Shown: in pieces, positions 13,967-53,066 of the stretch
How positions within the stretch are numbered: position 1 is the first letter of the stretch
Layout: every line of letters begins with the position of its first letter
NCBI GenBank assembly: GCA_951406725.2
Contig: OX597841.1
Span: 16,492,001-16,556,000, forward strand
Length of the DNA stretch: 64,000 nt
Source of the DNA: Octopus vulgaris
Lineage: Eukaryota
Direction of reading: 5' to 3'
The notes under the pieces: generated by a model
What the model saw: only the letters and a program-made list of their open reading frames with translations
Databases searched by the model: none
Told to the model about the DNA's origin: nothing
Program-made: the position numbers and the translations under genes

Positions 13967-14171
13967 CACATTATTTGTAATTCTTAGTCAAATTGTTAAG
14001 CAGACATTTTACATGGCGGTTTTGAAGCGTTTGCGAGGCACGGCGGGGCGAAAACGCCCCCTACCAGTGGCACAGTGGAGAGTGGTGGTTTCATCGCGAT
14101 AATACACCTTCGCACACCACCTTGAATGTTTCAGAAGTTTTTGACCAAAATTTTCCTCCATCTTGCTTGAA

Positions 14172-14583
14172 GGCGGCGAGCTGGCAGAAAGGGTAGCACG
14201 CCGGGCGAAATGCAAAGCTGTACTTCGTCTGCCGTTACGTTCTGAGTTCAAATTCCGCCGAGGTCGACTTTGCCTTTCATCCTTTCGGGGTCGATAAATT
14301 AAGTGCCTATTTCTTTACTATCCACAAGGGGCTAAACACAGAGAGGACAAACAAGGACAGACAAACGGATTAAGTCGATTATATCGACCCCAGTGCGTAA
14401 CTGGTACTTAATTTATCGAAAGGATGAAAGGCAAAGTCGACCTCGGCGGAATTTGAACTCAGAACGTAACCGCAGACGAAATACTGCTACGCATTTCGCC
14501 CGGCGTGCTAACGATTCTGCCAGCTCGCCGCCTTAAGTACCAGTTACGCACTGGGGTCGATGTAATCGACTTAATCCCTTTGT
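14172..14583. mobile_element. SINE A (+) with an antisense SINE A (14306-14532) nested at ttaagt
   Basis: Host copy splits at ...gataaattaagt | ttaagtaccag...; ttaagt duplicated. Confidence 0.88.
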
Positions 14584-14812
14584 TTTGTTCCCCCGAATGA
14601 AAGAAAGTCCTTAAAGGGAAAAGGTTTCACAGATGGAGAAGAGGTGAAGAAAGACACAACAGAGCCTCAGGACTGCTTCCAACAGTGGAAAACGCGCCTG
14701 GACCAATGGAGAGTACTTGGAAGGCGATCAAAGAATAAAGATGTATAAAGCTAAGTGAATAAAAGGATTTTGCAAAATTTAGGTTTCCTTTGGATGGTCC
14801 CGCGTATATATA

Positions 14813-15458
14813 TTATTTCTTTATTGCCCACAAGGGGCTAAACATATAGGGGACAAACAAGGACAGACAAAGGGATTAAGTCGATTACATCGACCCCAGT
14901 GCGTAACTGGTACTTAAGGCGGTGAGCTGGCAGAAACGTTAGCACGCCGGGCGAAATGCGTGGCAGTATTTCGTCTGTCGTTACGTTGTGAGTTCAAATT
15001 CCGCCGAGGTCGACTTTGCCTTTCATCCTTTCGTGGTCGATAAATTAAGTACCAGTTACGCACTGGGGTCGATATAATCGACTTAATCCCTTTGTCTGTC
15101 CTTCTTTGTCCCCTCTATGTTTAGCCCCTTGTGGGCAGTAAAGAAATAGGTATTTCGTCTGCCGTTACGTTCTGAGTTCAAATTCCGCCGAGGTCGACTT
15201 TGCCTTTCATCCTTTCGGGGTCGATAAATAAAGTACCAGCTCCGCACTGGGGTCGATATAATCGACTTAATCCGTTTGTCTGTCCTTGTTTGTCCTCTCT
15301 GTGTTTAGCCCCTTGTGGGTAGTAAAGAAATAGGTACTTAATTTATCGACCCCGAAAGTATGGAAGGCAAAGTCGGAATTTGAACTCAGAACGTAACGGG
15401 AGACGAAATACGGCTACGCATTTCGCCCGGCGTGCTAACGTTTGCCAGCTCGCCGCCT
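14813..15458. mobile_element. SINE A (-) with a + strand SINE A dimer (14918-15332) nested at ggtactta
   Basis: Host copy splits at ...ctggtactta | ggtacttaatttatcg...; inserted unit is a full copy plus a head-truncated copy. Confidence 0.88.
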
Positions 15459-15459
15459 T

Positions 15460-35641: not shown

Positions 35642-36245
35642 CATTCATTCATTCATTCATTCATTCATTCATTCATTCATTCATTATGGCTGCTCACTCG
35701 TTATCGAGTATGGCCATTGCACGAAGCTTAACTATTACTGGTGCTGTGATCGAATGTGACTTTTTAGCCCAGCTAAAATTGGCAACTAAAACCTTTACTG
35801 GTAATAACCGTCTGTAGTTGTAGCTGGGCTTCATGTACCTTTGCATGTCGTTTAAGTCCTCCTGCCGAATTACACTCCCTTCAACATGCCCGACAGATAT
35901 GATTAGTATGGTGTGTTACACCACCACCAGTGGCCAGGTTGTCACTCATCTGTCTCGTTTTATGACTACGAAGATGACTCTTGAGTCCAGCTTTACTGAG
36001 GCAGGGTCTTGCACAGACATTGCATGTCAGAATCAAAGGAAGACCCTTCCCTTCTGGAAGTGTAACAGCGATGTCCTTCCTAACATCCCTCCTTACTTTC
36101 TCATGTGCAACTCGAGATTTCTCAAACGTGGCTGTCCCCTCATGCACAATCCTTCTCCACCTGCTACGATCAATAGCTATGCCTTCCCATGTGTCAGGAG
36201 AGATGCAAGCATCTCTTAAGGAAGCCTTCAGAAAGTCCTTGTAGA
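35642..36245 (-). mobile_element. RTE (BovB-like) LINE 3' end with C-terminal C2H2 finger and (GAAT)n tail
   Basis: YKDFLKASLRDACISPDTWEGIAIDRSRWR...CNVCARPCLSKAGLKSHLRSH; (TTCA)n at 35642-35684 on +. Confidence 0.88.
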
Positions 36246-36269
36246 TACATACATGCATACATACATGCA

Positions 36270-36540
36270 GATGTGGAATTCAGCTGCCCAGCGGATGTTA
36301 ACATAGAGCTTAGAAATCAGCGAAAAAGAAAATCTTCAGATACTCTATCCAGATTTCAAGTTCAGGTTTATACCTGTAATTATTGGGACTCTGGGTTATG
36401 TAACACACTGCCTAAATACTAATCTTGAAAAATTAGGTTTCTCAAAACCAAAATGGAGAAAGCTGATGCAAAGTCTACAGCTCCAATCCATCACTGGAAC
36501 TGTAAAAATCTGTAAAACTTTCCAGAAGTTTATCATTTAC
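36270..36540 (+). mobile_element. R4/Dong-like restriction-like endonuclease C-terminal fragment
   Basis: VEFSCPADVNI..ISEKEN..LQILYPDFKFRFIPVIIGTLGYV...LQLQSITGTVKICKTF. Confidence 0.75.
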
Positions 36541-36556
36541 GTTTATATGAGCATGT

Positions 36557-36945
36557 CTTCATCATCATTGTTCGACCGTGGTCGAGACAATGGAATTTAC
36601 TATGATACGCCAGACTTCACGGTCCATCATAGCATTACGGAGGTCCTGTTGCTGGAAGCTTGTATCCCTGGAGATTACATCAGGGTAGGAGAGTGTGCGC
36701 CCTCTGGTATCGCGAGTAGATGGCTTCCAGAGGACAAGAGTAGAAATTACTTCTTTTTCAGCTCTACAACAATGTCCAGCAAACTGGACTCTCCTACCTT
36801 TCACAAGAGATGACACAGGTGGTAGTTTCCCATATATTTGTATTTTGGTTGGATGACACTTCCACGAGAGATTTTGAGCTCTCATGAGGAGGCGAGTGTA
36901 GGTTCCATCCGACCACCTCTCAAGCTTCTTTGATAGCTTCTTTGT
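36557..36945 (-). mobile_element. RTE/RTE-X LINE 3' end with (TGA)n tail
   Basis: DGTYTRLLMRAQNLSWKCHPTKIQIYGKLPPVSS...QFAGHCCRA...AMMDREVWR. Confidence 0.88.
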
Positions 36946-37412
36946 ATAGTTCTTATCCAGGTATCTGAGCCGAAACGCTAGAATTGGTTTGAGTGACGTA
37001 TCGGTTGTTAATCAGATGGCTTCGGGAGGACAAATACAGATAAACAAACACACACACACATACATACATATATGTCAATAATACTATTCCACAGCCATAC
37101 CAACAATCCGACAATAGTCCATCATCAGCTGCCCCACGGATATCATTATGGTTTCGACACCAGGGCAGAACCATTCAATCCTGCGGTGTGAACAGCACTA
37201 AATAAGTGTTGTTTGTGAACAAACAAACCAAACACAGCATAACTTTCAAACACATTTACCCAATGTAATGTTGTGTATCGATAAATAAATTCAATAAGTA
37301 AATTACAACCACTCCTAAATTGGTAATATATATATGTGTGTATATATATATGTGTATATATATATGTGTATATATATATATGTGTGTATATATATATATA
37401 TGTATGTATATG

Positions 37413-48046: not shown

Positions 48047-48097
<51 letters not shown>

Positions 48098-48510
48098 GTG
48101 TGTATGTATGTATTTATATTGATACTTATGTATATAACAAAGTGCCTATCGATAGACATATGCATACTCATATATATGTGTGTGTGTGTAAATGTATATG
48201 CGAATGTATTATATATATATATATATAAATAGATAGTTATATAGATGGATATATAGATGGATATATAGATGGATAGATAGATAGTTAGATGGGTGGATAG
48301 ATAGGTAGATAAAGATATACATATACAAATGTACACACATATGTACACACACACATATATATTTATATATGTATATATATATTCATATATAGAGATACGT
48401 ATGTAAATACATATATCTACGTGTATATATGCACAAATATATATTCATACATCTATAAGTATACGTTAGTACACATGCATATATATATATATACACACAC
48501 ATAGATAGAT

Positions 48511-48559
<49 letters not shown>

Positions 48560-49003
48560 CATACACTGATGATGTACACTTAGATTTGCAGTGTGTAAAC
48601 CATACACACCACTATAGTCAGAGAAACGGGTGCGCCCACCCGTATAACATTCGTCATGATATTTACGTTTTTATGTTAGAGAAGGGGGTGGCATCTGTGA
48701 CAGTTGTCACTGTTCATCGCAGGGTGGGGGTGGCGTTAGTCGTGTGGAGGAGCTCGGGTGGTTTGGTTAAGCTTTTGGTGTGGAGTCGCCGTAGGTGGAC
48801 GGGTGGAAGTTTAGAGGTCGATAAACATGCAAATGGATCGATAGATACGTGGATAGAAAACTAGATCTGTAGGAAATGTCCCCCCTGTGTATGTAATTCT
48901 GTGTGTATGTATGTATGTATGTATGTATGTATGTATGTTCGTGTATGTGTATGTGTGTGTGTGAGTTTAAGTATTTATTTATATATGCATACAAGCATAA
49001 GTT

Positions 49004-49052
<49 letters not shown>

Positions 49053-49112
49053 TAGTGTGTGCAGCTATGTTGACATATATCTATACATATATGGATGTCT
49101 GTGTCTGTGTGC

Positions 49113-49179
<67 letters not shown>

Positions 49180-49494
49180 TATATATATATATAGACATAT
49201 ACATATATATAGACATATACATATATATATATATATATATACATATGCATATATATATGCATATATATATGTATGTATATAAACACACACATACATATAT
49301 ATATACACATACACATGGATATATGTATATATACATACATACATATATAAATCATACATATATATATATATGTACACTCACATATATATGAATATAAGCA
49401 TATATATCATATATATATATATTTAACGATTATATAAATATACACACACATATATATATATGTGTGTGTTTATGTAGACATATGTATATAGTTG

Positions 49495-52110: not shown

Positions 52111-52784
52111 GTAGTAGTAGTAGTAGTAGTAGTAGTAGCAGTATCAACAAGAGTCAATTAATTAACCGATATACCAAAAAACATACCGATTGGTTCACCA
52201 ATCGTTCGGTCAATCTATCAATCAATCAATCAATCAATCAGCTGATGAATGAATCGTCTAGTTTTTGCCACAGTTCTTCCGTTGCCATTCGAGTCCTCAT
52301 CAATCACATGACCCCGCCCGTCACTCCAGCTCTGTCACATGATAAAGCCACGAATGGCGACGAAAGAATTCTCGCTAAGCTAGCTGAATAATTGTTTAAG
52401 TGATTATTCGATTCATTGATTGATTGGTTGGTTGATAGATCGACCGATCGAACAATCAATCGAGTACCAAAACCTTAGAAACGTTAGTAAAACAGTTTAA
52501 AGAAAGGCGAAGATTATAGTAAGTATTTTACCATAGGAGTGGCTGTGTGGTCAGCAGGTTGTTAAGCGGTGGTAGGACACCCCACACGTATATATATATA
52601 TATATAATAATAAATATTAGGGAATAAATCCAAATTTACAGGGAAAAAATCAGATTTAGGATTAAATCCAATTTTATAGTAAAATATTATAAAATATTAT
52701 TAGAGACAAAACCACTATTTTGCAAAACAAACAAGGAAATACTTAATCAATACATAAAATTTTAATAAATAGTCAAAAAAACCG

Positions 52785-52827
52785 CCACTACAATTGTTTC
52801 TTGTCTTGATCAACAATCTTCAGGTGG
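52785..52827 (-). ncRNA. Minimal type I hammerhead ribozyme (antisense copy)
   Basis: rc: ccac CTGAAGA ttgtt gatcaa gacaa GAAA caattg TA gtgg. Confidence 0.75.
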
Positions 52828-52880
52828 ACTTCCAATAAGTCAGTTTCGACTTCATAATTTGAAACTGACTTATTGGAAGT

Positions 52881-52923
52881 CCACCTGAAGATTGTCGATC
52901 AAGACAAGAAACAATTGTAGTGG
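52881..52923 (+). ncRNA. Minimal type I hammerhead ribozyme
   Basis: ccac CTGAAGA ttgtc gatcaa gacaa GAAA caattg TA gtgg; palindromic stem III ACAATTGT; atypical U-A pair at base of stem II. Confidence 0.78.
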
Positions 52924-53015
52924 CGGTTTTTTTGACTATTTAAAATTTTAAAATTTTATGTATTGATTAAGTCTTTCCTTGTTTGTTTTGCAAAATAGTG
53001 GTTTTGTCTCTAATA

Positions 53016-53066
<51 letters not shown>

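Follow-up and report, generated by a model that had tools for sequence, protein, structure and literature searches.

Origin of a hammerhead-bearing fold-back in the Octopus vulgaris genome: a probable two-ended insertion from a spliced Penelope-like element RNA

Introduction

How does a genome come to hold a nearly perfect palindrome in which each strand carries a hammerhead ribozyme motif? The question is raised by positions 52605 to 53025 of a 64,000-nucleotide stretch of Octopus vulgaris DNA (contig OX597841.1 of assembly GCA_951406725.2, positions 16,492,001 to 16,556,000; the whole stretch is called the window here). An earlier note on this DNA proposed two possible origins, an inverted insertion product of a Penelope-like element (PLE) built from its pseudo-long terminal repeat (pLTR), or an independently propagating palindromic ribozyme element. 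Inverted PLE insertions, their one-sided tails and their hammerheads are already known. Here, we present evidence from the octopus genome that favors the first origin and that points to a particular route. We consider it likely that the fold-back is a single PLE insertion. In it, the two ends of a cut (TA)n target would each have primed a cDNA on one and the same sense RNA, capped and spliced, at two fixed sites, with the cDNAs then being joined head-to-head. What is read from the sequence is the parentage of the fold-back, the precise loss of an intron from both arms, the pairing of its termini, the variability of its junctions across the family, and the likeness of the two arms in isoform and allele.

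The fold-back and its relatives

The two arms align over 160 bp, at 52688-52847 and 52861-53025, and differ by 2 substitutions and by an insertion of 5 nt, which lies in the right arm near 52943. They are separated by 13 nt (52848-52860), and the left arm alone has an extension of about 80 nt (52605-52687). Both flanks consist of (TA)n, at 52587-52604 on the left and 53026-53049 on the right. When folded, the 431-nt stretch forms a rod of -252.5 kcal/mol (z -30.9), and none of 100 shuffles did as well. Alignment and folding bear out the layout given in the earlier note. Not noticed there were four features described below: the splicing, a G that resembles a cap copy, the pairing of fixed ends and the existence of an autonomous parent.

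Relatives were sought in the 2.8-Gb genome (227 contigs). A 30-mer from the hammerhead has 499 exact matches and a 30-mer further downstream has 3,109, while the 431-nt stretch used as a query gave 1,221 candidates. Loci were sampled by short words to avoid the bias of ranking by similarity. Sample 1 comprises the first 100, in genome order, of the 499 hammerhead matches, which correspond to 74 loci of 10 kb each. Sample 2 comprises 61 loci obtained with the downstream word (70 were fetched, and 9 were dropped as the same insertion); 8 loci are common to both samples. Inverted partners in sample 1 are separated by 88 bp to 9.2 kb.

The parent element

Most loci retrieved with the 5' part of the open reading frame (ORF) have the arm sequence immediately ahead of that ORF. 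One whole element (L215 and L216 together) consists of an inverted arm, a pLTR, an intact ORF of 838 amino acids and a second pLTR, and ORFs of 837-851 amino acids are present in four of nine other regions. The arrangement of partially tandem pLTRs with an inverted 5'-truncated copy recurs in L217, L220-L222 and L224 as well as in L215 and L216. Inspected by eye, the 838-residue protein (P0003) has reverse transcriptase (RT) motifs, DKT, a CxCx5C linker and a GIY-YIG region, with CxxC and CxH flanking its E and N; its N-terminus reads KWK where the RWK motif of the Hydra clade would be expected. Atlas neighbors of the parent protein (0.95-0.98) bear GIY-YIG, HTH_animal, DUF8422 or RVT_1, and Pfam and PDB sequence searches with a truncated parent copy of 743 amino acids returned nothing relevant. 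DKT in place of DKG, the CxCx5C linker, and CxxC and CxH around E and N are diagnostic of the Hydra clade (PMC8557442). By these motifs the parent is assigned to the Hydra clade as a young, endonuclease-bearing (EN+) PLE. A Neptune label was dropped, the CX2-5CxxC linker and DKG being absent. Between the RT and endonuclease regions, at about residues 490-600 of P0003 (within L216:3312-5828), there is an Asn-rich insert; N-rich inserts are known in Penelope ORFs of Adineta vaga (PMC3846280).

The family prefers (TA)n targets: among 79 pairs made up of one arm without and one arm with the tail, 72 have (TA)n on both sides. A target-site duplication is unreadable within (TA)n, and a complex flanking sequence of at least 15 nt was shared in just 1 of the 79 pairs. 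That sole case, L026, has 46 bp of non-trivial sequence on both flanks, possibly a long target-site duplication.

Spliced and unspliced copies

Two kinds of sequence precede what we call exon 2 of the element. Long copies have a 23-nt exon 1 followed by GTAAGT and an intron of 1.5-3.3 kb that ends in AG, that is, a GT-AG intron in the 5' untranslated region (5'-UTR). Short fold-backs have the two exons joined precisely and the intron gone, and this holds for each of the two arms in the window. Counted genome-wide as exact junction words, the two states are about equally frequent, with 302 spliced and 295 unspliced junctions. An alternative donor 4 nt further on was used in L063, L085 and L105, in L085 by both arms. 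Both subfamily alleles are found among spliced and unspliced copies alike, and an older subfamily of 88% identity also has short fold-backs that appear by eye to be spliced.

Intron retention is an unusual and characteristic, though not universal, trait of PLEs (PMC8557442, PMC2377424). The copy in the window did not retain its intron after retrotransposition, and the spliced and unspliced counts, taken as they stand in genomic DNA, argue against retention as a fixed property of PLEs.

Two loci show further variation around the intron. In L091:4581-5342, exon 2 is joined in both arms to unrelated sequence with an AG-like end rather than to exon 1 or the intron of the element, possibly host sequence that was captured or spliced onto the acceptor. 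The intron of L081:6900-9560 contains internal repeats of about 400 bp and about 1 kb, including a degenerate second promoter and exon 1 in which the donor is changed.

The RNA 5' end

With the splice junction as a landmark, both arms in the window can be placed on the element RNA. The right arm in full (52848-53025, + strand) is a spliced copy running from the putative cap to a proximal terminus at +172 to +176, with its exon junction at 52871/52872. The left arm in full (52605-52847, - strand; the window locus is L206) is a spliced copy of RNA +13 to a distal terminus at +254. The tail (52605-52687, - strand) is RNA from about +173 to +254, lying between the two fixed termini and confined to one of the arms. 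Autonomous copies continue this sequence into the 5'-UTR about 55 nt ahead of the ORF start. A weak stem-loop was found in the tail of a sister copy (z -2.3).

What, then, are the 13 nt between the arms? They had been taken for a spacer, and they are better read as part of the right arm. Exon 1 (+1 to +23) occupies 52849-52871 (+ strand), and its first 12 nt make up all of the apparent spacer except a single G at 52848 (+ strand). This G is templated by neither of the arms and not by the parent promoter, which has C at that place. Because the G is untemplated and the next 12 nt are the start of exon 1, the apparent spacer would be the 5' end of the RNA, with the G as a putative copy of its cap.

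The family as a whole is consistent with this placement. Spliced arms end at +1 or within about 30 nt of it. Of the 47 arms that match exactly through +1, 26 are preceded by G, 11 by A, 6 by C and 4 by T. Five of the six C cases run on into the promoter. When microhomology and promoter cases are set aside, G is found in 14 of 24 (P 6e-6 against an assumed 17%), a count in which some of the 14 are still ambiguous and two of the loci, L210 and L211, look like one duplicated locus. An extra G is a mark of capped, full-length insertions of LINE-1 (L1) (PMC11702581), and on the base counts the extra G here is likely cap-derived. Some spliced arms extend past the main start in the upstream direction, by some 20 nt or more (L098:4798-5278, which is L170/L171, and L187, L200 and L209), which suggests a minor upstream start or a read-through transcript.

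Paired ends, shared templates and turn-around points

A strict rule governs the outer ends of the arms. In 49 of the 52 head-to-head pairs of sample 1, the outer ends lie at +172-176 in one arm and at +254 in its partner (P 1e-11), so that the tail stands on one end only. The same ends were found in 38 of 41 pairs of sample 2, the others being one tail/tail pair and two with an unresolved end. Spliced and unspliced classes have identical paired ends.

The two arms of a pair also agree in what they copied. Their splice state is the same in all 29 informative pairs (P 2.5e-9), and no pair in sample 2 was called spliced/unspliced. The subfamily allele agrees in all 58 scorable pairs of 61, a set that includes 30 loci picked by similarity. 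Moreover, substitutions per 118 nt number 0.34 between the arms of one locus and 0.88 between loci.

The turn-around points, on the other hand, are variable: 31 adjacent spliced pairs have 26 distinct junctions. The longer arm is the tail arm in 12 of these pairs and the no-tail arm in 13, and the arms are equal in 6. Even the commonest junction, +1/+4 (5 of 31), occurs with the long arm on the tail side and on the no-tail side, and since both configurations are found it cannot descend from one master copy. Microhomology of at least 2 nt is present at 13 of the 31 junctions, compared to 18% in random joins (P 0.0015). In L170/171, L178/179, L180/181 and L196/197, both arms reach +1.

Arms that start at or just after the predicted ribozyme cut site

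Not all arms begin near the RNA 5' end. In sample 2, the longest arm starts between +1 and +32 at 47 loci and between +72 and +97 at 14, with none from +33 to +71 and none beyond +100. The predicted hammerhead cut falls after RNA +71. When positions around the cut were searched genome-wide, arms truncated exactly at +72 accounted for 8 of 8 matches, at +73 for 8 of 10 and at +71 for 5 of 6, compared to 2 of 4 at each of the control positions +69 and +68. In two of the ten +73 matches the partner arm runs through the ribozyme, and the extra A of the +71 arms may be flank. One pair (L298/299) has both arms stopping exactly at +72.

These positions make it fairly probable that hammerhead-cleaved RNA served as a third class of template, a reading that is weakened by the small numbers and by some arms that start just upstream of the cut. 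A live alternative is that RT stalled at helix I, or that AT-rich microhomology set the end point. For PAc, a Poseidon element of Anolis, RNA ends were reportedly not detected where its ribozyme would cut (PMC11167929).

How the fold-back could have formed

The route that we favor for these products uses both ends of the target. The endonuclease would cut both strands of the (TA)n target, and each 3' end would prime at one of two AU-rich sites on the same RNA. Both cDNAs would then proceed to the RNA 5' end, some 175-255 nt away after splicing. Because splicing brings the RNA 5' end so near, the arms would be nearly equal and the turn-around points clustered. End joining would close the junction, either through a few bases of microhomology or with inserts that are templated. 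Unspliced RNA would yield the long inverted forms, kilobases in size, by the same route, and hammerhead-cut RNA a likely third, ribozyme-less short form. There is biochemical precedent: in vitro, PAc cleaves AT-rich DNA on both strands and initiates RT at two internal sites, between which the tail lies (PMC11167929).

Several observations weigh against this route. The start site, the cap and the splicing are all read from DNA copies only, and re-copying one RNA would need strand displacement. Gene conversion between arms could raise the allele concordance, though not the splice concordance. The paired-end rule has 3 exceptions in 52, all in loci with three arms (L066, L069 and L103), and pairing is not obligatory, since 22 of the 74 sample 1 loci have no pair within 10 kb and 8 of these are short spliced single arms. 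Finally, a few BLAST overlaps of 11-13 nt may be over-extension that inflates the microhomology count, and 12 of the 26 G cases overlap microhomology with the other arm, from which the G could derive. The three-arm insertions each have two junctions, which may point to repeated priming at one site.

Could one cDNA do the work of two? A single cDNA of the spliced sense RNA might start past +254, fold back near the RNA 5' end and copy itself, with the endonuclease trimming the product to +176 and +254 during integration. Isoform and allele concordance would then follow without any re-copying of RNA. The +1/+4 junction looks as if a snap-back of 1 bp had been closed by the cap base, short palindromes underlie the symmetric junctions, and the tail has been ascribed to EN-mediated resolution (PMC8557442). 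We nevertheless judge this course unlikely. Two cDNA ends seem to be needed because both arms reach the last templated base in some loci, with inserts between them (+1 in L178/179, L180/181 and L196/197, and +72 in L298/299), and the tail ends observed in vitro are positions of RT initiation rather than of cutting (PMC11167929).

A published model derives head-to-head palindromes from self-priming on an antisense transcript, which would also explain intron retention; its authors say that experiments are needed (PMC3846280). Antisense RNA from an already spliced genomic copy would likewise be intron-free, and for those copies that are unspliced, half of the family (295 junctions), the model might yet be correct. 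The spliced arms, however, stop where the sense transcript starts and have a cap-like G there, and they include two different donors, both allele subfamilies and the older 88%-identical one; the spliced and unspliced classes, moreover, have the same paired ends. On this sequence evidence the model is largely refuted for the spliced copies, and we give it very little credence as the origin of the fold-back.

The idea of an independently propagating palindrome, a viroid-like or MITE-like unit copied whole from a master fold-back, fares no better and is highly improbable. It drew support from the best 40 of the 1,221 candidates, all of which are full fold-backs of 95-97% identity (the self match aside), and from the recurrence of one junction. 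A common turn-around point suggested by those 40 was an effect of ranking by similarity to the query, and was undone by the short-word sampling; even in the 30 best-match loci that were inspected the junctions differ. The earlier note had proposed just this comparison of turn-around points among genomic copies, and its outcome, given above, together with the recurrent junction in both arm configurations and the closer likeness of arms within a locus than between loci, speaks against a master copy, as does the lack of tandem arrays among the matches listed. The insertion-product origin that the note offered beside it is supported by the parentage, the variable junctions and the paired ends. Related labels were set aside on similar grounds: a viroid-like replicon by the variable junctions and a ribozyme sequestered in the rod, a miniature inverted-repeat transposable element (MITE) or other DNA transposon with terminal inverted repeats by the asymmetric ends, the variable center and the precise intron loss, and a non-LTR retrozyme, which consists of head-to-tail tandems of sense hammerheads, by the head-to-head pairs. 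Finally, an assembly or chimeric-read artefact is scarcely credible, because the same layout recurs with different junctions at many loci: although no contig of four sequencing runs spans the window locus, the arms differ by 2 substitutions and the 5-nt insertion, a read fold-back could produce neither intron loss nor asymmetric fixed ends, and joints of the fold-back type are also present in contigs of independent runs.

The hammerheads

Matches to the hammerhead core motif in the 64-kb window number exactly two, at 52789-52823 (- strand) and 52885-52919 (+ strand), where 0.06 would be expected by chance. The left-arm hammerhead spans 52785-52827 (- strand), with a predicted cut after 52789 and one C-to-T change in helix II; the right-arm hammerhead spans 52881-52923 (+ strand), with a predicted cut after 52919 (RNA +71). 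Both are of type I and of the Hydra-PLE kind, with a helix I of 4 bp, a helix II of 4-5 bp, a palindromic helix III of 3 bp and a loop of 2 nt. A description of them as complete hammerheads, one per strand, holds for the core bases, all of which are present in both copies, and goes too far for the fold: helix III has just 3 bp, the isolated hammerheads fold no better than shuffles (z 0.48 and 0.36), and an Rfam search found no match to a hammerhead model at gathering threshold or at E<=10, only generic hairpin families.

Can such a ribozyme act within the fold-back? A helix III of this kind blocks cleavage of the monomer, and a second sense copy is needed (PMC4209133). Each strand of the window element has one sense hammerhead copy, and the rod fold pairs it fully with its antisense, as had been anticipated. 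If transcribed, the ribozyme of this copy would be locked in the rod. The comparison with viroid-like architecture is superficial: the sense ribozyme is sequestered, its helix III is of the type that requires a second sense copy, and the turn-around points vary. The window copy has no upstream promoter region, intron or ORF, and is probably inert.

Comparison with known systems

In L1, twin priming is a minority outcome and occurs without overlap of the arms. The octopus family resembles it in that both target ends would prime on one RNA, in the microhomology at inversion junctions and in the extra G, here of likely cap origin; the second site in L1 is variable and internal, whereas in octopus twin priming would be the predominant outcome, with two fixed sites and with arms that in most cases overlap fully (PMC11702581). 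PAc resembles the family in having a pair of internal sites of RT initiation, one at each boundary of the tail, and an AT-rich target of which both strands are cut. That work is not known to tie the two sites to opposite arms of one insertion, whereas 49 of 52 pairs have the two ends across arms in octopus, where there is also the class of arms starting at or just after the cut site (PMC11167929).

Other EN+ PLEs of the Hydra clade have the same single ORF with RT and GIY-YIG, the same DKT, CxCx5C and CxxC/CxH motifs and the same (TA)n targets. The hammerhead layout matches that in File S2, the hammerhead table of the clade, though not the hammerhead listed for Hydra-1_oBim, and Penelope-13_HM also has an inverted 5'-truncated copy. 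Hydra elements are shorter than 3 kb, compared to a unit of about 6 kb from a long pLTR with its 1.5-3.3-kb intron in octopus, and the tail, described as 30-40 nt, is about 80 nt here (PMC8557442). Penelope of Drosophila virilis has a start site, a short exon 1 and a 5'-UTR intron ending just before the hammerhead, all within the pLTR, and its partial tandems have inverted repeats of varying size on their flanks, as in octopus. Its 75-bp intron is kept in genomic copies even though most transcripts lack it, whereas about half of the genomic junctions in octopus are spliced (PMC2377424, PMC4209133). Non-LTR retrozymes are likewise short, non-coding and PLE-derived and carry a type I hammerhead; they are head-to-tail tandems in which sense ribozymes can dimerize, whereas the window element is head-to-head, has one sense ribozyme per strand and would be made anew at each insertion (bioRxiv 10.64898/2026.07.22.740005).

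Other features of the window

The list of ORFs in the window, which is not a gene search, holds only repeats and retroelement-like scraps, with no clear exon near the site. Among the scraps are short open frames at 35881-36279 and 36565-37011 (minus strand), which look by eye like C-terminal pieces of a LINE-type ORF. Upstream of the fold-back, at 52188-52473, there is an imperfect inverted similarity between 52188-52239 and 52410-52473, with (CAAT)n/(GATT)n-like units and an interior of about 170 bp, perhaps a small separate repeat. Other inverted repeats are a cluster of SINE-like copies in both orientations (14170-15459) and a degenerate low-complexity pair of 67-69% identity (48079-49370).

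Two contigs of sequencing run X11, which is guessed to be RNA, show a cluster of changes relative to the window, A>G at 52702, 52708 and 52709 and T>C at 52716 and 52718. The changes at 52708, 52709 and 52716 are absent from two DNA runs. They may reflect A-to-I editing of a sister fold-back; these are single contigs, and other copies or individuals could explain them.

Implications for Penelope-like elements

The formation of inverted repeats, the keeping of introns and the role of the hammerhead are treated as unresolved for PLEs in three accounts (PMC8557442, PMC3846280, PMC11167929). The open-licence literature that was searched, outside which the key older papers lie, yielded no account of PLE copies that are spliced and abundant in a genome, of twin priming in PLEs, of strict pairing of termini across arms or of a class of arms starting at the cut site.

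Perhaps the family as a whole can be read as a record of how Penelope inserts, a broader proposition that we hold to be as plausible as its negation. Twin priming of an obligate style, at two fixed sites of one sense transcript, would build both the inverted repeats and the tail, and the templates would be unspliced, spliced and capped, or hammerhead-cleaved. Intron retention would then depend on which of these RNAs gives rise to a viable copy and would not point to an antisense template, and the germ line would be a place where the dimer-type ribozyme cleaves.

The octopus family has arms in the thousands, autonomous copies that are intact and three template classes that can be told apart, and it makes open questions about PLEs testable by counting genomic junctions. 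It also supplies an intact protein and an RNA of about 255 nt that are suited to in vitro assay. For the octopus itself, near-perfect hairpins of 150-350 bp are scattered through the genome, and these are candidate sources of double-stranded RNA if they are transcribed.
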